Below, piece after piece: positions 1,465 through 42,747 of a stretch of DNA of 48,634 bases. The stretch is from a virus (taxonomy: Duplodnaviria > Heunggongvirae > Uroviricota > Caudoviricetes). Location of the stretch: IMG/VR virus record IMGVR_UViG_3300045988_156243; one strand, 5' to 3'. Made by a program: the position numbers and the translations under genes. The notes below the pieces were generated by a model. That model saw only the letters and a list, made by a program, of their open reading frames with translations, made no database searches and was not told the origin of the DNA. Each line of letters starts with the position of its first letter. Positions within the stretch are counted from its first letter, which is position 1.

Positions 1465-1976
1465 TGATGGCCCCCGTCATTTCTGGTGCTTTTCACCGTG
1501 CGGCTTCTTAAAAACCTGCCATCACGAACAACAGACACTTCTCGTTTACCCAACCTCATTTCACGGCGGTAACATTCAGAAAATGCCTCGTCCGGCATCA
1601 TATAAATGCGACGCTTCGCCTCCGTATCCAGAAGGGAACGGCTTGGGGTTACATATAAAAACGACTCATCAATAGGGACAAAACCACGAGCAAGAATTGC
1701 TGGCAGAATGCCAGGAAGAACGCAGAAAACAGCGCCACGATGCAGCAACATCTGGTACTCCATGACCTCCGTTATCCCCGTGACCACTGTTACGGTGTCA
1801 CGTCTGTTACGGCTGGCAACCAGTCGCTGCACACGTCCAATTTTCTGATCTACAGATAGATGTTTGCTATCGTTATCAATATGATCGATAACAAATCCTT
1901 TAATCGTTTGATCAAGGTAGTGCACCACCTGCGATTGAATCTGGTGATTATCACCAAAGAAGGCCAGAATCATCAT
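1461..1976 (-). CDS. Hypothetical early protein
   Basis: 171 aa ORF, ATG start overlapping the upstream gene stop. Confidence 0.4.
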   Translation of the reverse strand: MMILAFFGDNHQIQSQVVHYLDQTIKGFVIDHIDNDSKHLSVDQKIGRVQRLVASRNRRDTVTVVTGITEVMEYQMLLHRGAVFCVLPGILPAILARGFVPIDESFLYVTPSRSLLDTEAKRRIYMMPDEAFSECYRREMRLGKREVSVVRDGRFLRSRTVKSTRNDGGHQ

Positions 1977-2467
1977 TCCTCAAGCCTCCCAAGTGCTGAA
2001 CGCCTGGCGTTGCTAATCTCCTTATGAATCAGCTCGATATCGCTGGAATCTTTATTCTTAAGCTCCAGCACGGTAATCGCATCACGAACCTCTGAAACGG
2101 TTACGTGTGAGTGTTTCCAGCGAGCAATGAATCGCGGACCGCGTAGATTGCAACGCTCCGCAGGCATCCCCAGCTCAGAGAAAACCGCTTTCAGCCTTGA
2201 TAAGCAGTTAACAGGGAGATTCCCTTTGATCTTGTTCTGCCGAACCGATGTGCCATCGCTACGCTGGCGCTGACGTTCGGCAAAATCTGCCGCCCATTGC
2301 TGGACGTTAATCCGGCCTTCCGAATACGCCACCAGCAGCGTCAGGTTATCCGCACGAGGGAATCTCTCGAAGCGATACCAGGCACCAATCAGTGATGACG
2401 TAAAGCCAAACTTTCTGGCAACACCAATTTGGCCTCCATTTTCGTCAACCCACTCCTGAAAGGTCAT
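1973..2467 (-). CDS. Cro/YdaS-like HTH early regulator with C-terminal extension
   Basis: 164 aa; N-terminus MTFQEWVDENGGQIGVARKFG matches Cro/YdaS-type HTH starts; divergent from the CI-like gene across an operator-rich spacer. Confidence 0.5.
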   Translation of the reverse strand: MTFQEWVDENGGQIGVARKFGFTSSLIGAWYRFERFPRADNLTLLVAYSEGRINVQQWAADFAERQRQRSDGTSVRQNKIKGNLPVNCLSRLKAVFSELGMPAERCNLRGPRFIARWKHSHVTVSEVRDAITVLELKNKDSSDIELIHKEISNARRSALGRLEE

Positions 2468-2641: not shown

Positions 2642-3298
2642 ATGAAAAGCAACGACGAGAACATCAAGAAAGAAATAGGTCTGCGCATTCAGACTCTACG
2701 GAAACAATCCGGCATGACTGCCGGAGATCTCCAGCAAGTCACTGGAATAGGCTTAAGCACCTTGCAGAACTATGAGGCCGGATTAAGACAACCATCTATA
2801 CCTGCCATCAAGAAAATCGCGCACGCCCTGAAAGCATCAGCGCCTTATATCGCGTGCTTAACAGATAACCCGTTCCCACCCCAGAATACTAACGCTCCTG
2901 TTATTCCTGGGCTTGTAGCTATAAAAAATGACATAGCATCGCACGCCGGAGAAAAGCCAGTGCTGGCGATAGAACAGGAGATTCTACGAAGCAAGAACAT
3001 CAACCCATCGTCTCTGTCAGTTCTCCAGAGCAACGATGAGTTAATGTCACCAACAATATCCCCTGGCTCCCAAGTCCTGATTAATACAGACGATACAGAG
3101 ATTCATGAGGGGATCTATGCCCTTGAAGACAGAAATGGCCTGGTTGTTTTGAGGCACTGTAGAGTCATACCGGGTGACAATGCTGTTATGCTGTCAACCG
3201 AAAGGGATGCTGAAATGAACACTAAGCATCTGAATAACGAGGAATTTAAGCGTTATAAAGTTCTTGGCCGCGTAGTTAGTGTTGTCAACTGGTTATGA
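2642..3298 (+). CDS. CI-like repressor (HTH_XRE N-domain plus S24 LexA-like C-domain)
   Basis: 218 aa; N-terminal HTH (GMTAGDLQQVTGIGLSTLQNYE); C-terminal MSPTISPGSQVLINTD and KVLGRVV resemble the S24 Ser/Lys autocleavage motifs. Confidence 0.85.
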   Translation: MKSNDENIKKEIGLRIQTLRKQSGMTAGDLQQVTGIGLSTLQNYEAGLRQPSIPAIKKIAHALKASAPYIACLTDNPFPPQNTNAPVIPGLVAIKNDIASHAGEKPVLAIEQEILRSKNINPSSLSVLQSNDELMSPTISPGSQVLINTDDTEIHEGIYALEDRNGLVVLRHCRVIPGDNAVMLSTERDAEMNTKHLNNEEFKRYKVLGRVVSVVNWL

Positions 3299-3339: not shown

Positions 3340-3356
3340 AACCACATTTTGTGGTT
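3340..3356. promoter_or_regulatory. Operator-like palindrome aaccacattttgtggtt (could also act as a weak terminator hairpin)
   Basis: Same AACCAC-N5-GTGGT pattern downstream of the CI-like gene, flanked by an A-run and a T-run. Confidence 0.35.
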
Positions 3357-3390: not shown

Positions 3391-3765
3391 ATGGAATTAC
3401 ATACAGCCAATAAAAACGAAACTCTGATCACTGCTGGAATCGAAATCCAAGCGTTGAACATAGCGATTGAGTGTATGTTATGCCAAATCATTGATAATGA
3501 GAAAGATATCGACTGGATAGAATCTATCCTTCATCTGGCATCAGAACAAAAAGTCTGCCTCAAAACGGCCTTACAATACGATGTGCCAGCGGTATCGAAG
3601 CTGTGCCAGCCATTGATGGCATATAACAGGGCTATTATTTCTGTATGCCTCATGATTCTTGATGAAAACACCCCTCTTAGCGACCGCTCAGAAGCTGCTC
3701 TAACCCTCTCACGTAAACAGCGACAGCTAGCAAATCAACTGATATCAACGATAGCTGACCTCTGA
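3391..3765 (+). CDS. Hypothetical protein downstream of repressor
   Basis: 124 aa, ATG start with agagg RBS; followed by a hairpin terminator. Confidence 0.4.
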   Translation: MELHTANKNETLITAGIEIQALNIAIECMLCQIIDNEKDIDWIESILHLASEQKVCLKTALQYDVPAVSKLCQPLMAYNRAIISVCLMILDENTPLSDRSEAALTLSRKQRQLANQLISTIADL

Positions 3766-3900: not shown

Positions 3901-4569
3901 ATGGAGTCTCGACAAATGACTATCTCTGTAGGTATTTTCAACGGAAAAGGCGGCGTAACCAAATCAACAATTGCCCGTGCTTTAGCAGTTGCTTATGCAA
4001 AGGCCGGCTGGAATGTATGCCTGATCGATATGGATGTGCTTAACGGAACGGTAACGCGTTGGGTACAACGCAGAATGGCCAACAATATCGAACCTGCAAT
4101 CGCGGCACAGCCGTGCGGCACACCATCACAAGTCCAGAAAATCATCGAATCAGAAGTATACGACTTGGTTATCGTCGATGGCGGTGCCTACGCATCTGAA
4201 TCAGTACCGAAGCTCTCTGAATTTCTGGATATGGTTATTTTGCCAACCAGATTCTCTACCGATGACCTGGAAACCACCGTTAACACAGCTCATGGCATCG
4301 TTAAAAAGGGTGTGCCAATCAAGAAAATTTGCATGGTGTTCTCAGGCGCGGCTGAAAACGAAGCCGACTACATTGAAGCCCAAGAGTACCTGGCTAATAC
4401 GCCATACTTTGTTGTCGATAAGTACATTCCCCACAAGCCAGCTCTAAGCAAAGCTCAGGATAAGGGCTTAAGCCTCATTGAATGCTCATACGTTGCGCCA
4501 CGCAAAAAGGCAGACGACGTTATTCAGGGGATTATCAACCAGCTTGAGGCTCTGACTACTGCCGCGTAA
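3901..4569 (+). CDS. parA: ParA-family partition ATPase (small, ParF-like)
   Basis: 222 aa; deviant Walker A GKGGVTKST near the N-terminus; no N-terminal HTH extension. Confidence 0.85.
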   Translation: MESRQMTISVGIFNGKGGVTKSTIARALAVAYAKAGWNVCLIDMDVLNGTVTRWVQRRMANNIEPAIAAQPCGTPSQVQKIIESEVYDLVIVDGGAYASESVPKLSEFLDMVILPTRFSTDDLETTVNTAHGIVKKGVPIKKICMVFSGAAENEADYIEAQEYLANTPYFVVDKYIPHKPALSKAQDKGLSLIECSYVAPRKKADDVIQGIINQLEALTTAA

Positions 4570-5111: not shown

Positions 5112-5233
5112 CTACTTGCTGCTAATGTTTATCGTCACATTCAGAGCGTTATCAGTAATCTTCCAACCCTCCCCATGTGGCGTAAACAAAGCTCCAGTAA
5201 CAACGATAAAAATACACATACAGTATTTTTTCA
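5112..5233 (-). CDS. Small hydrophobic peptide, candidate type I toxin
   Basis: 40 codons from ATG at 5233 (MKKYCMCIFIVVTGALF...); ORF-track version is TTG-extended; its 5' UTR carries the complement of the 20-mer at 5299-5318. Confidence 0.3.
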
Positions 5234-5298
5234 TTGTGTGGCCCTTACAGGCCGTTTCACGGCATCCCCACCGACGAAAATGACGCGAGAGCAAGCAC

Positions 5299-5318: not shown

Positions 5319-5548
5319 ACGGCAAGTGGATAATCCTTTCCTGAAAGTCAGTGCCCGGGTGCGAATCGGCGGAAAGGCCCCAAGCCATATTACACGTCAT
5401 ACCCTTCATAATGAAGGAATAAAAAACGCTTTTATTACATAAGATTACACGTAAATAAGTTAAAAACCTTCATTTTGCATGAGCTAATGAGCTAAATTTT
5501 TTTATATGAATAGTGGACTATTCACCTCAGTTGGGTAAGAATGTAGTT

Positions 5549-5568
5549 GCTGTTTGTGCTTGCGTGGT
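5549..5568. repeat. 20-mer box copy 2 (gctgtttgtgcttgcgtggt)
   Basis: Direct repeat of 5299-5318 at the predicted 5' end of a plus-strand sRNA. Confidence 0.8.
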
Positions 5569-5651
5569 TGTATTAGTACAACGACGTTATGCTGAAAGGA
5601 CCGCGAATCCGATCAGCACGAAAGAACCGTCCTCAAAAGGACGGTTTTTTT
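5549..5651 (+). ncRNA. Candidate ~100-nt sRNA (antitoxin-like), ending in an intrinsic terminator
   Basis: Possible promoter TGGACT-16 bp-TAAGAAT just upstream; terminator ccgtcc-tcaaaa-ggacgg plus T7 at 5627-5651; no credible ORF. Confidence 0.4.
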
Positions 5652-6205
5652 GTTTCTCCCCCTTCCTTCCCAAATGATTCAAATGTTAATGAGAGAGAAT
5701 CATTTGATATGTTCGATTTAGCGCCGTTATCGACCCAATTTCTGTATGCTTCATCACAACAGTACCTTACAGCAGTTGGAGTAACAGGGATGCCGCCCCC
5801 AAATGAGAATCCCATTGAGCTAATGCTAACTCTTTCGAATGGCCTATTTCTCAATGCTTCAAACCCCTTGCTATTAAAGTAACGCAGCATCAGAGGTAAA
5901 AGGTTATCCTCGTCCTGACTGATTGTTCCAGGGAAAAAGTAGTAACCATAACGGTTAAATTCGGGAATAAGATTTTCTACCAATGACATGAAATTCACTG
6001 GAGTAATATTAAGGGCTGTGAAAGCACCAAAAAGGGCGTCAACTGTTAATACAGACTGCCCGTTCTCTATCTTTGTCCATGCGTTTGGTGTTTTTCCAGC
6101 AGCTTGAGCCAGCACTCCTTGATGCACACCTCTTTCTAGCCTAAGTTCTTTTATGATCATTAGGTGAATTGTTGAAAAACATGAGTTTTTTGACTGTTCA
6201 ATCAT
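5633..6205 (-). CDS. HTH_XRE-family transcriptional regulator with C-terminal domain
   Basis: 190 aa; N-terminal HTH (ELRLERGVHQGVLAQAAGKTPNAWTKIENGQ); divergent from the antirepressor operon. Confidence 0.7.
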   Translation of the reverse strand: MIEQSKNSCFSTIHLMIIKELRLERGVHQGVLAQAAGKTPNAWTKIENGQSVLTVDALFGAFTALNITPVNFMSLVENLIPEFNRYGYYFFPGTISQDEDNLLPLMLRYFNSKGFEALRNRPFERVSISSMGFSFGGGIPVTPTAVRYCCDEAYRNWVDNGAKSNISNDSLSLTFESFGKEGGETKKPSF

Positions 6206-6339
6206 TTTTTATCCCCATACTGAATTTTTTCTTGTTCCCGACTTTAACAAAATTCCACAACTCAGGACTGATTGATTCCTTACAGGAACTATACATTCCC
6301 ATTTTAGCATATCAAGAAAATTAAAAGCCCCGCATTCAA

Positions 6340-6356
6340 ACCCACACTATGTGGTT
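6340..6356. promoter_or_regulatory. Operator-like palindrome acccacactatgtggtt upstream of the antirepressor operon
   Basis: AACCAC-N5-GTGGT pattern 23 bp upstream of a TTGACA hexamer at 6380-6385. Confidence 0.4.
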
Positions 6357-6409
6357 GTCTCTGTTAAAATCCCGCCGTATTGACATAAATGCGCCATTGG
6401 TGGACACTT

Positions 6410-6488
6410 TCCGAGCCGTAGCAAAATCTACGGCCGGGATTAGCCTCCTGAATAACACGATGGCGCATACCGCGTTAGCGGTTTTTTT
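6410..6488 (+). ncRNA. Candidate structured leader/sRNA upstream of the antirepressor operon
   Basis: Hairpin ccgtag-caaaat-ctacgg and ccgc-gtta-gcgg followed by T7 (6470-6488); no ORF. Confidence 0.25.
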
Positions 6489-6650
6489 ATGCGTAGAGCA
6501 CTGTTACGCCCAAATTATGGTGGGTCGTACAGGGGCGGAGAAATCCGCGCCGGTTCGTCATTGTGTCCGGTAAGGCTAACCCTGTACGGCTCACCACCAT
6601 TTGATTAGCCTCGAATGGCGGTGATAGTTCCATATACTGGAGATATCACA

Positions 6651-6842
6651 ATGACAAACCTACCCCATGACTATTACGTCAACCTCGTAAAGATCCTTCT
6701 CAAGAAAGCCTCATACGCCGATAAATTCCGCCTGGCTGAAATCATCGAGCGCGAAGCTATGCGCATCGCCAGCAACGATAACGCTGTTTCTGACGCAAAA
6801 ATCTCCCTCGTAACCAAAGTAGTTATGGGAGGTGCAAAATGA
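6651..6842 (+). CDS. Small ORF translationally coupled to the antirepressor (icd-like position)
   Basis: 63 aa from ATG at 6651 with ggag RBS; stop overlaps the antirepressor start (ATGA). Confidence 0.35.
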   Translation: MTNLPHDYYVNLVKILLKKASYADKFRLAEIIEREAMRIASNDNAVSDAKISLVTKVVMGGAK

Positions 6843-7990
6843 AAACGCTTCCGACCGTTAACACCCTACAGCCTATCCTGCATAATCAGATTCCAGTAAT
6901 CACAACTGAGCTACTCGCCCGCCTTTATGGAACAGAAGCAATCCGTATACAGCAAAATCACCATGAAAATAAAACTCGGTTCATTGAGGGGAAGCACTTC
7001 TTTAAAGCTGTTGGTGATGAACTCAAAAATTTGCGACTAGTTTTAAACGAGTCACAAAATGAGGTGCCAATTTCCCCCAAAACTCGCTCTCTCATCCTCT
7101 GGACAGAACGCGGGGCTGCACGTCACGCCAAAATGCTTGAAACTAACCAAGCGTGGGATGTGTTCGAACGGCTGGAAGACTGCTATTTCAACCAGAACGC
7201 GCAAACGGCCGCGACCGTAACCGTCTCGCCAAACAATGCTCGTGAGGTTGTCGATACGCTCAACGCCAAACCGATGTTTTACATTAAGGTGTGCAACAAC
7301 GAGCCACTCACAACCTCAGCCGATGTTGCCCAGGCATTCAGCACCACAAACAATTCCATCGTTATGGCCATCGATGCGTTACGCATTCCTCGCACAGCTG
7401 CGGCACGTCATTTCTTTAAAGAGCAACGACCGCTGGAAGGAAGCGACCGCGAAATAACAATCTATCGCATGACAAAAGACGGATTTACCTTGCTCATGGA
7501 AAGTATCGACGGTCCAGGCGTGAAAGATATCAAGCTGGCCTACATTGAAGCCTTTAACGCTATCAGCAGCGTGTTAAAAACACAGTACGAGCGTGATCTG
7601 GCTAAACGACTGTACCAGGAAAAAACGATTATCCGCGCGGCAACAGAGCATAATCGGCTATTAACGGAACCGAACTACAGGAAGGAACTAATCAAGGAGT
7701 TTGACAAGGCAACAGGGAAAACCAAAGCGGCGCTAAATCTGCCAGCAATGACTCAGGAAAATGTGATATCAGCCTTACTTCTTGATCTGCTCAGAAACGC
7801 CAGAGCACTTATCAGCTTTGACGAAAACCTGAATCCTCAGCTCAAGCTACTACCACCGACAGGCAAAGTAGTCGACCAAGCTGATCACAACAGCATACTC
7901 AGCGTTCTGGATGCAAACCTGCCAGCCAGGACACTACAGGATCTGATAAAAACATGTGCTGATAAGCTGGCACAGAAAAGCAGACCATAA
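6839..7990 (+). CDS. Antirepressor (KilA-N/ORF6N-type N-domain plus Rha/Ant-type domain)
   Basis: 383 aa; N-terminal ITTELLARLYGTEAIRIQQNHHENKTRFIEGKHFF and central PMFYIKVCNNEPLTTSADVAQAF resemble phage antirepressor domains. Confidence 0.8.
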   Translation: MKTLPTVNTLQPILHNQIPVITTELLARLYGTEAIRIQQNHHENKTRFIEGKHFFKAVGDELKNLRLVLNESQNEVPISPKTRSLILWTERGAARHAKMLETNQAWDVFERLEDCYFNQNAQTAATVTVSPNNAREVVDTLNAKPMFYIKVCNNEPLTTSADVAQAFSTTNNSIVMAIDALRIPRTAAARHFFKEQRPLEGSDREITIYRMTKDGFTLLMESIDGPGVKDIKLAYIEAFNAISSVLKTQYERDLAKRLYQEKTIIRAATEHNRLLTEPNYRKELIKEFDKATGKTKAALNLPAMTQENVISALLLDLLRNARALISFDENLNPQLKLLPPTGKVVDQADHNSILSVLDANLPARTLQDLIKTCADKLAQKSRP

Positions 7991-7996
7991 CTACAA

Positions 7997-8020
7997 GGGG
8001 CTACGGCCCCTTACTCTTTT
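7997..8020 (+). terminator. Intrinsic terminator after the antirepressor
   Basis: Hairpin ggggc-tacg-gcccc followed by a T-rich run. Confidence 0.6.
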
Positions 8021-8728
8021 CTCTCTTATCAACACCAGAGACTTTCTGAAAATCCTTTCGAATAGCGTCAGCGTCACGCGCCAAGCCCATACTGGAACGT
8101 GTCGCCATATGACGAAAATGATCAACTGCCGGAAACAAAGAAATAATGGACCCAATAGCTTGCAGCAAACTCGCTTTTCTACGCATCATAATTCCACCAT
8201 AACCGATAACCACCCTTCAGACACAACCCCCCCTCCCCCCATACAGGGTGCCCTTTACCGGAGTTCCGGCCCCTTCTCAAAAGCATCAAAAAAAGCTCGA
8301 GATAGAGTACCGGAACTCATGCCACCAGATAGCTCCACATCGTTTCCAATGCTTCGCCGCCGTGTGCGCCCTGTGGCCCACAATCATGCCATTGGTCGTC
8401 TGATATACCTTCTTCTGCTCATAGAGCACAGGCGAGTTGTCGCACTCCTGCCTTTCTCAGACTCGACTTAGTTTAGATCGCTGTTCCTGGCTTGCGTCAG
8501 CACACTTTCCCCTTGTACGCATACCCGCGCGCCACTTCGCCCAAAAACACCGAACCCAACGAAGTGGCAAAGACAACGACGCGAGCGTGAGTCTGAAATG
8601 GGCACCAGTAAAAAAGGGGTTGCAGGCGCAAAAAGATTTGATTATCTTTAGACGCAAGAAAGCCGCCCCAATCAAGAGGTGTCTTTTTAAATCCAGCCTA
8701 CCAAGCAAGATTTAAATTTCAGACTGAA

Positions 8729-9671: not shown

Positions 9672-9971
9672 TCAGATGTTAAACGCTATTCGTTTTCCTG
9701 TGGGAAGCTCAACATCCAGGCTTAATTTGCCTCCCATAGCTTCAACGTAACGCTTTAATGTCGCCAGCTTTAAATCATTTCCGCGCTGCTCCAGCTTTGT
9801 TACTGCTGGCTGGCTTATACCCATCGCCTCAGCAACCTGTTTTTGTGATAACTGGAGTTCTTCACGCATCATCTGCAAGCCGACCTCAAGAATCATCTCA
9901 TCTGCCATTTCTTTAATTCGCGCCTGGCTTTCCGGTGAACGGCTGGCAATCGCCTCATCTAATGTTCTCAT
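9672..9971 (-). CDS. HigA-like antitoxin (HTH_XRE)
   Basis: 99 aa; HTH LQLSQKQVAEAMGISQPAVTKLEQ; sits immediately downstream of the toxin gene. Confidence 0.75.
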   Translation of the reverse strand: MRTLDEAIASRSPESQARIKEMADEMILEVGLQMMREELQLSQKQVAEAMGISQPAVTKLEQRGNDLKLATLKRYVEAMGGKLSLDVELPTGKRIAFNI

Positions 9972-10318
9972 TACTTGCTCTCCAGTGTGTTCAGATGTGC
10001 TGCAAACTCATCCTCAGCTATACGCACCAGTTTTTCATAAAACCGCTTATCGTTACTTTTGTCTCCTGCACAAAGAACGATGGCCCGGCGAATCGGATCG
10101 AACGCATAAAAGGCTCTTATCGGACGGCCAGAAAACTGAACGCGAAGCTCTTTCATATTTTTGTACCGAGAACCTTTTACGGTATCGGCATATGGCCTAG
10201 GTAACTCAGGTCCGTAAACCTGTAGCTTTTTCAAATCAGCCAAAACCTTTTCCTGAAGAGCGTCTTCTTGCTCATTTAGCCAGTCGTCAAATCGCTGGCT
10301 AAAAAGTACCGTCCACAT
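9971..10318 (-). CDS. RelE/HigB-type toxin (phage Gp49-like killer protein family)
   Basis: 115 aa from ATG at 10318 (ORF-track start is TTG); toxin-first order overlapping the antitoxin start. Confidence 0.7.
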   Translation of the reverse strand: MWTVLFSQRFDDWLNEQEDALQEKVLADLKKLQVYGPELPRPYADTVKGSRYKNMKELRVQFSGRPIRAFYAFDPIRRAIVLCAGDKSNDKRFYEKLVRIAEDEFAAHLNTLESK

Positions 10319-10355
10319 GCTCAATCCTATAACCTGTAGTTTATATCACTAACTA

Positions 10356-11349: not shown

Positions 11350-11780
11350 TTATTTCGTCCTTATATAAATTGATTTTGTATAGTTCGAAACGCGCCGTTT
11401 CGAAAAGGATGATCAGGCTACTCCATGCCTCCGGCAAGTGCCGGAGGAGGTATATTTGAGCGTAGCGACTCGAACCGGCGCGAGCTTTAGCTCGCTGCAA
11501 GGGCGAACATATTCACAGGCAAAGCCTGCGTAAGTTAAATAAAGAAAGTTTTAATAAAAGAAAGTGATTTTGCATTTATTTGTTTAGTGCATCTATTATA
11601 AAAAACCATTTGCATATACATATCAAAACTGTGGATAACTTGATTAGTTGATACCTGTAAAGGCGATATTTTTGCTGAGTTCAGGTTTAGAGAAAATTAA
11701 TTTAGCTTGTTTTTTGAACAGCTATTTTTTTGCGACGTAGATAATCCTCCGGTAAAACCGGATTCATCATTCAGGTGAGT
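11350..11780. other. Candidate plasmid replication origin region downstream of repA
   Basis: AT-rich; DnaA box tgtggataa at 11630-11638; GC hairpins at 11385-11405, 11428-11448 and 11465-11485. Confidence 0.45.
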
Positions 11781-12628
11781 TAATGTTGGAGTGATTTCCA
11801 GGTCTTTCTTAGCCTGTTATAACGCTGCTCAACGAGGGATCGTAAATATGCAAGGTCAGCACCAGGATACATGCCATCAGCAAATTCCTGGCTAACCTCT
11901 CTAGTGATTTGATGACGAAGTTCGGCCTCTCCCTTTTCCTGAACAAGACGCGCAGCTCTCTCCGCTGCTTTCTGTTTTGCCTTTATCTCTCTGGCCGTCT
12001 TCCTCTGACGCCATACATTCTCCATCTGCTCCTGAATAACAATACGCTTATAATCAGCCTCCGTTATCGCTTTTTTAAGCCGTTCGCTATTCTTCGCATT
12101 GAAGTAATTAAGTTTCTGGCTAACCGCACGTCTCCATGCTTGTTCAGTAATACCAACGGTTTCCAGCAGTTGATCACGAATCTCTATTTTCGCTGGCCAA
12201 TACTGTTTATTCACCCGATCCCAGCGACGTTCATAATCAATAAAACCTAACGCTTTCAGTTGCGACAACGCCCTTGTACAGCGCGTTATAGACTTGTTCC
12301 CAGCTTCGGATACGGTAGACAGGCCGCAAAAATCAGCCAACGCCTCAGCACTAGCCAGAACCCGCTTAGAAATGATGTTTACATGGTGCAAAATCGCAGC
12401 GATCACAGCATTAATCGCCCGACGACGATGCTCGTTTATCCGGCGCTTCCGCTCTGACGGTTGATTAACGTAGAACGCAACCTCACACGTAAGATCACGC
12501 CCATTAATGCGCTGTAAAGCATCAGATAACACCAGCGGCAGCTTGTGCGTATGGTGCTTTGGAGGCTGGAACTCCGGCGACAAATTACAAACGTAAGCTG
12601 AACGTAGAGACGGCATTGGTCTATCCAT
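11780..12628 (-). CDS. repA: Plasmid replication initiator, IncFII RepA1-like
   Basis: 283 aa from ATG at 12628 (ORF-track start is TTG at 12790); SITRCTRALSQLKALGFIDYE resembles the RepA1 motif SITRATRAL as I recall it. Confidence 0.8.
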   Translation of the reverse strand: MDRPMPSLRSAYVCNLSPEFQPPKHHTHKLPLVLSDALQRINGRDLTCEVAFYVNQPSERKRRINEHRRRAINAVIAAILHHVNIISKRVLASAEALADFCGLSTVSEAGNKSITRCTRALSQLKALGFIDYERRWDRVNKQYWPAKIEIRDQLLETVGITEQAWRRAVSQKLNYFNAKNSERLKKAITEADYKRIVIQEQMENVWRQRKTAREIKAKQKAAERAARLVQEKGEAELRHQITREVSQEFADGMYPGADLAYLRSLVEQRYNRLRKTWKSLQH

Positions 12629-12673
12629 ATGTTCGCTCTTGCGTCCACGGAAAACCAACGTATAATGGGAGTT

Positions 12674-12752
12674 GTCGAGGCGCCCATGGATATTGTTGTT
12701 GGTTTTCCGTGGATGTCGCAAGAAGCCCGCAGATTTATCTGCGGGCTTTTTG
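12674..12752 (+). ncRNA. Candidate antisense RNA to the repA leader (CopA-like)
   Basis: Plus-strand promoter TTGCGT (12639-12644), 17 bp, TATAAT (12662-12667); terminator agcccgcag-atttat-ctgcgggct plus T5 at 12722-12753; 16-bp inverted repeat arms 12644-12659 and 12698-12713 around the repA RBS. Confidence 0.4.
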
Positions 12753-12794
12753 TTTCCATATCTGGTCACTTTCCAACCAGACACCCACAATCAT

Positions 12795-12811
12795 AACCAC
12801 GTTACGTGGTT
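12795..12811. promoter_or_regulatory. Operator-like palindrome aaccacgttacgtggtt upstream of the repA leader
   Basis: Same AACCAC-N5-GTGGTT pattern as the cI/cro operators. Confidence 0.4.
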
Positions 12812-42671: not shown

Positions 42672-42747
42672 TGGTGGCCCCTACCGGATTTGAACCGATG
42701 ACCGTGCGATTATGAGTCGCCTGCTCTAACCACTAAGCTAAGGGGCC
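42672..42747 (-). tRNA. tRNA with CAU anticodon (Ile2-like or Met)
   Basis: 76 nt; 7-bp acceptor stem GGCCCCT/AGGGGCC, anticodon loop CUCAUAA, T-loop GGTTCAAATCC, encoded CCA; close to E. coli tRNA-Ile2 as I recall it. Confidence 0.85.

Follow-up and report, generated by a model that had tools for sequence, protein, structure and literature searches.

The immunity I (immI) region of phage P1 is annotated in the order Oc4, P2c4, P1c4, a1, b1, c4, a2, b2, icd and ant1, and the c4 RNA of P1 is cut out of its transcript by RNase P. The CI RNA of satellite phage P4 is similar in that it is a processed leader RNA with complementary target copies (seqA and seqC) up- and downstream, but it serves transcription termination ahead of the replication genes and not antirepressor control. 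In the isrK-orf45-anrP locus of Gifsy-1 (Hershko-Shalev et al., 2016; PMC4825925), a short terminated RNA and a read-through mRNA are made from one promoter, and the output is an antirepressor. The a1/a' pairing, common to Gifsy-1 and the locus described here, was tested in Gifsy-1 by compensatory mutation (IsrK G28/G31 with C162/C159; PMC4825925, Table 1D), and the P4 CI RNA was cited by the same authors as a structural homologue of IsrK (PMC4825925). Hfq binding by isrK and trans-activation of downstream translation are known from Salmonella experiments only (PMC4825925). The c4 and IsrK literature surveyed deals with P1 c4 and Salmonella IsrK as separate subjects.

We analyzed a stretch of 48,634 nt of viral DNA (referred to as the window). 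The region from 6340 to 7990 is a true relative of the P1 immunity I cassette, a known and well-understood type of switch, and its comparison with P1 and Gifsy-1 identifies c4 and IsrK as two halves of one cassette: IsrK corresponds to a1/b1 plus a terminator, and the 'orf45' region of Gifsy-1 is a c4 homologue. The operon on this 48-kb phage-plasmid is very probably an antirepressor operon of the immunity I type, of the same kind as P1/P7 c4-icd-ant and Gifsy-1 isrK-anrP. The features named in a preliminary description of the region are all present, with shifts of at most 1-2 nt (Table 1). That description had compared only the layout with P1 c4-icd-ant and had claimed no sequence similarity to c4. 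The comparison of layout was correct but understated, since the leader RNAs are homologous according to Rfam covariance models. Judged by sequence, the RNA cassette belongs to the C4 (RF01695)/P1-type immI family, and the protein cargo does not. Neither small RNA gene is marked in two fully annotated RefSeq plasmid records and one phage record of this family, in which the region carries the labels 'hypothetical' or 'ash family protein'. A literature search for the phage-plasmid family under the name vB_YpM gave no match.

Table 1. Coordinates of the antirepressor operon and of two regulator genes in the window.
Feature	Position	Strand	Description
CI-like repressor gene	2642..3298	+	HTH_3 and weak S24 peptidase-like C-terminal part; Pfam, phrog_4/phrog_6201
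Divergent HTH gene	5633..6205	-	HTH_3/HTH_31
Operator-like palindrome CCCACACTATGTGGT	6341..6355	.	ACCAC-N5-GTGGT family
Putative extended -10 TGTTAAAAT, upstream promoter	6362..6370	+	Read from sequence; -35 region would fall under operator
Predicted promoter of isrK-c4-orf63-ant transcript	6380..6408	+	TTGACA (6380-6385), 17-nt spacer, GACACT (6403-6408)
IsrK-like RNA	6415..6488	+	Hairpin 1; hairpin 2 with a1; b1; Rho-independent terminator 6469-6488
a1 target copy UUAGCCU	6440-6446	+	In IsrK hairpin 2
b1 target copy ACACGAUGGCG	6455-6465	+	Within IsrK-like RNA
c4-type antisense RNA	6513..6601 (Rfam span)	+	RF01695
b'	6556-6566	+	Loop of c4 hairpin 2; core GUCAUUGUG
a' AGGCUAA	6573-6579	+	8-nt single-stranded linker of c4
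a2 target UUAGCCU	6605..6611	+	7 bp, perfect complement of a'; in 6-nt loop of local hairpin
Hairpin masking ORF63 Shine-Dalgarno (GGAG, 6639-6642)	6621..6649	+	Predicted fold
b2 target CACAAUGAC	6647..6655	+	9 bp with b' core GUCAUUGUG; spans ORF63 start codon 6651-6653
ORF63	6651..6842	+	63 aa/codons, 192 nt; stop overlaps ant start (ATGA, 6839); position of P1 icd
Hairpin in ORF63 3' end	6801..6833	+	UCUCCCU pairs with ant Shine-Dalgarno GGGAGG (6827-6832); predicted
Ant antirepressor	6839..7990	+	383 aa; ORF6N and Rha domains; C-terminal region without family match
Terminator-like hairpin ending operon	7995..8022	+	AAGGGGCTACGGCCCCTT and T-rich tail

The leader had been described as untranslated and hairpin-rich over about 250 nt. 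It is strongly structured (-102.2 kcal/mol for 6415-6670, compared with -75.4 ± 4.9 for shuffles, z = -5.5), but it is not merely untranslated, as it contains two Rfam RNA genes in tandem on the plus strand. The first is an isrK match (RF01394, model positions 1-77, 68 bits, cut-off 50), and the second, 30 nt downstream of the decoy/terminator part, is a full-length C4 match (RF01695, model positions 1-87, 70.8 bits, cut-off 45; P1's own c4 scores 68.8 bits). The c4-a1b1 model (RF03163) reaches 36.7 bits over the bases at which the isrK model passes, under its cut-off of 46.7. In the P1 leader, C4 and c4-a1b1 are above their cut-offs and isrK, at 35.1 bits, is under the cut-off of 50. Gifsy-1 also holds the pair, with isrK at 79.3 bits and a C4 match of 69 bits between isrK and anrP, and the order isrK, c4-like segment and antirepressor from one promoter is the same as in the window. 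The pair was found upstream of ORF63 homologues in 14 of the 16 loci scanned with Rfam; in the other two (L015 and L016), sRNA-Xcc1, another RNA family, occupies the c4 position. No P4-specific Rfam family was matched in the window.

A regulatory RNA had previously been suspected at 6400-6490. An RNA is indeed located there, namely the IsrK-like a1/b1 decoy with its terminator, but the antisense c4 itself lies downstream. The terminator, earlier placed at 6470-6488, consists of a stem (6469-6482) and a T-run to 6488, and was also detected by a pattern scan. The mature c4 is predicted at about 6519-6598, only by alignment to the annotated ends of P1 c4, and by this analogy a processed RNA is expected mainly there, not only at 6400-6490.

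The preliminary description had also proposed an Rfam/Infernal check of structure and covariation, which yielded both families above cut-off and helices with compensatory changes. IsrK helices 1-3 are 91-100% paired, and the c4 stems 97-100%, with compensatory changes in both RNAs. The minimum free energy fold of c4 (-46.1 kcal/mol, z = -6.1) consists of a long closing stem around two inner hairpins; the linker with a' and the loop with b' stay unpaired. Its 17-bp stem is 99.7% paired, hairpin 1 has three fully compensatory pairs, and a tRNA-like acceptor stem with 3' CACCACC is present. This fold recurs in 21 loci. The pair count, a tool that we applied to intramolecular helices only, found 93.7% of cells paired and 21 pairs changed on both sides; slid controls were 36-47% paired, and none of 500 shuffles attained the observed values.

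The two exposed segments of c4 are complementary to a1/b1 inside isrK and to a2/b2 (duplex energies -9.0 kcal/mol for a'/a2 and -13.2 kcal/mol for b'/b2). A MAFFT alignment of 18 leaders mis-registered a2/b2 in some rows, and we therefore counted a'/a2 and b'/b2 pairs by anchored extraction and duplex energies. In all 11 loci counted, P1 and Gifsy-1 among them, a' is complementary to both a1 and a2 at 7 of 7 positions, and these loci represent 6 a-types and 8 b-types. For each b', the b1 segment of its own type is the best partner or within 0.6 kcal/mol of the best. For b2, the own-type rule is true for most loci, not all, among the 8 b sequences; b2 covaries with b' between types, as in YpM41, where CAUCAUGA goes with UCAUGAUG and a' reads ACGCCAA. 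The compensatory Gifsy-1 mutants map to a1 and a' on this layout. Compared with Yersinia phage vB_YpM_41, the window diverges chiefly in the a/b/c4 sites: identity is 75% in a1-b1, 75% in c4 and 55% in a2-b2, compared with 96% in the promoter and 99% in ORF63. Scanning viral contigs with the conserved terminator sequence for more leader types returned only contigs already known, and scanning genome contigs with ORF63 yielded one locus.

The window shares with P1 and P7 the order of operator, two promoters, a1, b1, c4, a2, b2, small ORF and an ant gene joined to it by an ATGA overlap. The c4 RNAs of P1 and the window fold alike, the linker holding a' and the hairpin-2 loop b'; in both, a1 lies in a hairpin loop, a terminator-like hairpin separates b1 from c4, and a repressor operator precedes two promoters spaced by about 40 bp, operator and promoters being predicted ones in the window. 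The first gene of P1 is icd, to which ORF63 is unrelated, and P1 Ant1 has KilAC/ANT-domain architecture in contrast to ORF6N and Rha in the window. b2 covers the Shine-Dalgarno sequence in P1 and the start codon in the window, the operator is an asymmetric 17-bp C1 site in P1 and a symmetric CI-type palindrome here, sim genes are missing upstream, and the host element is 48 kb rather than a P1-like 94 kb. In Gifsy-1, no gene stands between c4 and the antirepressor, b2 covers the anrP Shine-Dalgarno sequence, and orf45, reported as the coupling ORF, begins in the 5' stem of c4 and runs through it. In the window, in contrast, that frame is closed, the putatively coupled gene upstream of ant is ORF63, which is separate and conserved, and no Q-type antiterminator gene adjoins the module, unlike in Gifsy-1.

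Upstream of the leader, the palindrome earlier called a CI-type operator (then placed at 6340-6356) belongs to a family enriched beyond chance. Allowing at most one mismatch, the window holds 8 copies of ACCAC-N5-GTGGT where 0.67 would be expected, and none of 100 shuffles has as many; perfect copies are found at 12796 and, on either side of the CI-like gene, at 2487, 2590 and 3341. The operator at 6341-6355 is kept in phage-plasmid relatives, missing from lambdoid relatives, and occupies the position of Oc4/Op51 in P1. We infer that the CI-like repressor would bind this site and the operator family as a whole, and that it would also be the target of Ant; the output side of the circuit is read from domain names only.

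The TTGACA hexamer at 6380-6385, noted in the preliminary description, was confirmed by direct reading. Together with the 17-nt spacer and GACACT it predicts a start near 6415, which is also position 1 of the isrK model match. TTGAC is invariant in 17 of 17 relatives, and in the lambdoid ones the -10 reads TATATT. Our consensus promoter scan missed this promoter because its -10 matches at 3 of 6 positions only; between 6415 and 6839 there is no further promoter-like site, save a weak one inside ant. Relative to the predicted start, the centre of the operator falls near -67, too far away for it to occlude the 6380-6408 promoter. Its role depends on the putative upstream promoter, whose extended -10 precedes the second -10 by 38 bp (40 bp in P1) and retains TGn and TAnAnT in one relative (L014) despite differing sequence. 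This promoter is a possible analogue of P1 P2c4/P51a. The divergent HTH gene at 5633-6205, also reported previously, is present and probably lies outside the module: homology with many relatives sets in sharply at about 6338, immediately ahead of the operator, and several relatives have another HTH gene, or none, in its place.

The small ORF upstream of the antirepressor gene ends as described before, its TGA (6840-6842) overlapping the ATG (6839-6841) of ant. RefSeq annotates this 192-nt CDS in relatives as well. ORF63 matches phrog_7886 (E 2e-47), and its 39 homologues are nearly all exactly 63 aa long with conservative substitutions. Searches of Pfam and NCBIfam gave no match. The AlphaFold model has three helices (pLDDT 82), and Foldseek gave no fold match in PDB or BFVD. 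BLASTP against P1 Icd produced no alignment. The antirepressor is present as had been proposed, with Pfam matches to ORF6N (residues 12-99, E 7e-20) and Phage_pRha (residues 158-242, E 4e-12) and PHROG matches to anti-repressor families; P1 Ant1 was rejected as a homologue, as the alignment had E > 5 and the Pfam domains differ. Both ribosome-binding sites are in predicted hairpins. In the one upstream of ORF63, the basal GUGA/UCAC pairs are conserved, and the whole helix is 76.7% paired in 18 sequences. The one at 6801-6833 (-12.1 kcal/mol, z = -2.3) is, according to the predicted fold, a candidate structural basis for translational coupling of ORF63 and ant.

We propose the following switch, in which repression by c4 would operate as in P1/P7, and a1:a' pairing and activation by IsrK as in the Gifsy-1 experiments. 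Transcription would start near 6415 from the weak TTGACA/GACACT promoter, and a second, repressor-controlled promoter may lie beneath the operator. The terminator would stop most transcripts, releasing a 74-nt IsrK-like RNA bearing a1 and b1. Read-through transcripts would carry c4, probably excised by RNase P as in P1, whose long stem would leave b' and a' exposed for pairing with a2 and b2 on its own or a sister transcript. Since the start codon of ORF63 is covered by b2 and its ribosome-binding site is predicted to sit in a hairpin, ORF63 would then stay untranslated; and since the Ant ribosome-binding site is predicted to be locked in the ORF63 hairpin and the genes overlap at ATGA, no Ant would be made without ORF63 translation. 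Untranslated ORF63 would probably also lead to premature Rho-dependent termination, as in P1. The IsrK-like RNA, with both target sequences, would act as a decoy that ties up c4; in excess, it would allow Ant synthesis and thereby inactivation of the CI-like repressor. The locus would offer an SOS-independent, RNA-gated path to derepression, with no new principle in any of its parts.

When the c4 region was expressed constitutively in Gifsy-1, IsrK-induced growth arrest was not prevented (PMC4825925), so a simple decoy may not be the whole picture. The alternative model, published for this closest isrK locus (PMC4825925), is self-activation without free c4: the read-through mRNA would be silent in cis through a1/b1:a'/b' pairing and opened in trans by IsrK, with the c4 region a mere part of the mRNA and not the source of a diffusible immunity factor. 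The high Rfam isrK score agrees with this, and a1/b1 pair with a'/b' as well as a2/b2 do (-9 and -15 kcal/mol). However, when the leader is folded in full, c4 remains a domain of its own in the minimum free energy structure, with a1 not paired to a', and a2/b2 covary with a'/b' as strictly as a1/b1, which pairing in cis alone does not demand. Moreover, TAA 6571-6573 shuts the Gifsy-1 orf45 frame through c4 in the window, where ORF63 comes with a ribosome-binding site of its own, and in Salmonella a processed RNA, STnc1160, of about 80 nt was seen (PMC4825925). We regard this model as the less likely account of the window, though one with appreciable weight; it and repression by c4 can both hold.

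If the leader were only a structured 5' UTR or attenuator without any trans-acting RNA, which the preliminary description had named as its own refutation, the terminator could serve as a simple attenuator. Two curated RNA-gene families above cut-off, the joint change of three separated sites in 6 a-types and 8 b-types, and the concentration of divergence in exactly these three sites make this highly improbable. Even less probable is a protein-coding leader, either as an 'Ash family' protein (N-terminally extended ORF63) or through other ORFs (6349-6573 or 6489-6608, for example). In relatives, the extended ORF has a Pfam Phage_ASH match of 26.1 bits (cut-off 26), window ORF 6349-6573 has one with E 0.003, and some RefSeq records name the extended ORF63 'ash family protein'; but the halves of the profile match different frames and ORFs across the RNA genes, c4-loop indels open and close frames between close relatives, and the substitutions are compensatory for RNA stems. 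In addition, ATG 6615 has no Shine-Dalgarno sequence, whereas 6651 has GGAG 8 nt upstream. The likeness to P22 sar-ant, also drawn previously, is one of layout only (a small ORF, then ant), and a sar antisense RNA that would be read over the ant ribosome-binding site from the other strand deserves hardly any credence, as no minus-strand promoter-like site lies in or just upstream of ant (the sole one in 5400-8300, at 6315-6288, is directed away), no Arc/Mnt-type ORF or family match was found, and no Rfam match of the sar kind appeared at E ≤ 1.

Returning to the immunity I reading, we note that relatives of the window differ in specificity, as P1 and P7 do. Such variation between otherwise near-identical plasmids is what heteroimmunity would predict. 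It is conceivable, although we consider it rather doubtful, that the a and b sequences form a two-key specificity code that is reshuffled by recombination among near-identical phage-plasmids and passed to unrelated lambdoid prophages. If so, an antirepressor could be silenced by the c4 RNA of a different resident element and switched on by the IsrK decoy of that element, and co-resident mobile elements would be linked through RNA in a network of cross-immunity and cross-induction; ORF63, moving with the cassette, could then be an Icd-like host-directed effector. Within the 48-kb family, three a-types and three b-types occur in 5 of the 9 possible combinations. One combination is also present, together with ORF63, on a chromosomal lambdoid prophage of E. 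coli, which has the same a'/a2 and b'/b2 and departs only in IsrK hairpin 1 and the promoter region.

The module is a further instance of an already known type of RNA-controlled antirepressor operon. A scan of the whole window with Rfam at curated thresholds gave four matches, two of which lie in tandem within the leader, isrK followed by the C4 antisense RNA. P1's own c4 reaches 68.8 bits under this C4 model, and RF03163, the model of c4's a1/b1 targets, overlaps isrK at 36.7 bits, under its cut-off. The leader (6415-6670) has a predicted fold 5.5 standard deviations more stable than those of shuffled sequences, confirming, together with the terminator, the hairpin-rich leader and terminator-like element of the preliminary description. 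The placement of an RNA element at 6400-6490 was imprecise: an RNA is found there, the isrK part, but c4 lies downstream. The likeness to P1 had been limited to layout, with no claim of similarity to c4; the layout stands, and the Rfam matches lift this reservation by showing the RNA cassettes to be homologous, so that the P1-type reading is correct and stronger than had been claimed. The parallel likeness to P22 sar-ant was wrong, and antisense control of the sar type was rejected, because neither an opposite-strand promoter nor arc/mnt genes were found.

Features of the antirepressor module and associated genes (window positions)
Feature	Position	Strand	Remarks
CI-like repressor gene	2642-3298		HTH_3 and weak S24-like C-terminal part; phrog_4, phrog_6201
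ParA-like gene	3901-4569		adjoins module
HTH gene	5633-6205	-	divergent from leader; family match
isrK (RF01394)	6415-6488	+	68 bits, cut-off 50
a1	6440-6446		UUAGCCU, in loop of isrK hairpin 2
b1	6455-6465		ACACGAUGGCG
Terminator	6469-6488		
C4 antisense RNA (RF01695)	6513-6601	+	70.8 bits, cut-off 45
b'	6556-6566		CGUCAUUGUGU
a'	6573-6579		AGGCUAA
a2	6605-6611		UUAGCCU, in hairpin loop
b2	6647-6655		CACAAUGAC, over ORF63 start codon
ORF63	6651-6842		63 codons; TGA overlaps ant ATG
ant ORF	6839-7990		ORF6N and Phage_pRha domains; strong anti-repressor PHROG matches
ACCAC-N5-GTGGT, perfect 15-bp copies	2487-2501, 2590-2604, 3341-3355, 12796-12810		

Recognition sites were named after P1, a' being the single-stranded c4 linker and b' the loop of the second c4 hairpin. 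The Shine-Dalgarno of ORF63 (6639-6642) lies inside a predicted hairpin (6621-6649), and that of ant (6827-6832) is predicted to pair with UCUCCCU inside ORF63. Pairing of a second gene's Shine-Dalgarno within the first gene is the usual structural basis of translational coupling.

Loci for comparison were gathered via ORF63 homologues and BLAST matches, with P1 and Gifsy-1 added. Both isrK and C4 precede ORF63 homologues in 14 of the 16 loci scanned; in two loci (L015 and L016), sRNA-Xcc1 replaces c4 at its position. The predicted c4 fold is identical in 21 loci. In an 18-sequence alignment, 93.7% of cells in the intramolecular helices pair and 21 helix pairs have changes on both sides, while sliding the partners left 36-47% paired, and no shuffle matched the observed values. 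The a' segment is complementary to a1 and a2 at 7/7 positions in all 11 representative loci, among which there are six different a sequences. Eight different b sequences occur among the loci compared; for each b' loop, the b1 of its own type was the best partner or within 0.6 kcal/mol of the best, and b2 showed own-type preference in most loci, though not all. The three-way covariation of the a/b sites speaks against a plain 5' UTR, and that reading was rejected.

The 48-kb family combines three a-types and three b-types in five ways. The window and the Yersinia myophage vB_YpM_41 share 96% identity in the promoter and 99% in ORF63, but the figure drops to 75% in both a1-b1 and c4 and to 55% in a2-b2, the same divergence pattern as between the heteroimmune P1 and P7. 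In a lambdoid prophage nin region of an E. coli chromosome (L003, 4996-5426), isrK, c4 and ORF63 occur with a and b sites that some 48-kb phage-plasmids share exactly, and overall leader identity to the window is 86.9%. This cassette precedes a different antirepressor (ORF6N and P22_AR_C), behind which comes another one, of the KilAC type; the arrangement suggests that unrelated temperate elements exchange cassettes.

The reading of the leader as protein-coding, an 'Ash' ORF, was also rejected, because the matches to Pfam Phage_ASH (PF10554) over the RNA genes fall in two separate reading frames. Profile positions 4-61 match the window ORF 6349-6573 (E 0.003), and positions 64-102 match the part by which ORF63 is over-extended at its N terminus in relatives (26.1 bits, cut-off 26; L030, 1860-2147). 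The RefSeq name 'ash family protein' derives from PF10554. This profile hits the non-coding isrK-c4 leader in translation, and PF10554 seems to be, at least in part, an artefact of translated RNA.

IsrK and P1 c4/a1b1 have been handled as separate systems (PMC4825925, PMC12197685), and the Gifsy-1 IsrK system was likened to P4 CI/seqA (PMC4825925). Gifsy-1 has a C4 match above threshold (69 bits; L038, 34131-34214, minus strand) between isrK and its antirepressor gene, anrP, and the compensatory mutations IsrK G28/G31 with C162/C159 (PMC4825925) map to a1 and a'. The P1 c4 and IsrK experiments therefore concern one cassette. Gifsy-1 orf45 is a frame from an AUG in the c4 5' stem, through c4, to an overlap with anrP; the published orf45 coincides with the Rfam C4 match, its first AUG being that of the stem. 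A processed RNA of ~80 nt (STnc1160) was reported from this region (PMC4825925). In the window, by contrast, a TAA at 6571-6573 ends the orf45-type frame, and ORF63 is a separate, putatively coupled gene with its own ribosome-binding site, which places the window nearer to P1 in architecture. In P1 (AF234172) the order is Oc4 (the C1 operator), P2c4, P1c4, a1, b1, c4, a2, b2, icd and ant1, the last two of which overlap.

The antirepressor and the small ORF overlapping its start were both described correctly. ORF63 has 39 homologues, nearly all of exactly 63 residues and with conservative substitutions, which by sequence make it a genuine, conserved protein. It is predicted to form three helices, for which no fold match was found. 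Compared with the P1 proteins, ORF63 proved to be distinct from Icd, and Ant proved not to be homologous to Ant1, although the RNA cassette is homologous. In VT2-Sakai, a Klebsiella phage and Gifsy-1, the antirepressor directly follows c4. Since different proteins follow it among relatives, the cassette is a transferable front end that serves various antirepressors.

In P1/P7, c4 keeps the first gene from being translated and in this way prevents expression of ant (PMC12197685). In Gifsy-1, translation is activated when the short IsrK RNA base-pairs with the a' strand (PMC4825925). In the window, c4 would be processed by RNase P, Rho-dependent polarity may contribute, and the CI-like repressor would be the target of Ant and bind the predicted operator at 6341-6355. 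This palindrome and the TTGACA (6380-6385) are present as first described, and the palindrome is not due to chance: the window holds 8 matches to ACCAC-N5-GTGGT when up to one mismatch is allowed, versus 0.67 expected. The copies at 2487, 2590 and 3341 flank the CI-like gene; the first two and a further, degenerate one at 2508 occupy the interval between the divergent genes 1973-2467 (minus) and 2642-3298 (plus), and the one at 3341 abuts a TTGACA upstream of 3391-3765. The copy at 12796 is upstream of 11780-12790 (minus). These sites are probably the element's repressor regulon. By analogy with P1 P51a/Op51, a second promoter, with extended -10 TGTTAAAAT at 6362-6370, may be controlled by the operator at 6341-6355.

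The 2.4 kb around the module are 91-96% identical to circular elements of ~48-49 kb filed both as plasmids of E. coli (including the 48.5-kb plasmid of ATCC 25922), E. albertii and Salmonella and as Yersinia myophages vB_YpM_39/41/44. Because such elements were deposited as both plasmids and myophages, the element is a phage-plasmid. Homology to many relatives begins abruptly at ~6338. The divergent HTH gene is real, as its family match shows, with no family match in the C-terminal 120 residues of its product; it behaves as a variable cassette, being replaced by a different HTH gene in the ATCC 25922 plasmid and absent from other relatives. At its 3' end, a weak RNAI-like match (5555-5652, plus strand; 28.2 bits, E 0.016, under cut-off) ends in a strong hairpin and T-run and is probably just a bidirectional terminator.

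A full-length ryfA match (RF00126; 5084-5382, minus strand; 131 bits, cut-off 80) adjoins the ParA-like partition gene and is kept in all phage-plasmid relatives examined. Its small internal hydrophobic ORF (within 5112-5294, minus strand) makes it a possible type I toxin/post-segregational killing locus. A toxin gene of the Gp49/HigB-like type (9971-10324), whose vB_YpM_41 homologue is annotated HigB2, adjoins an HTH antitoxin-like gene (9672-9971), both on the minus strand. A tRNA gene (42675-42747, minus strand; Rfam 65.8 bits) has CAU in the anticodon loop of the alignment.
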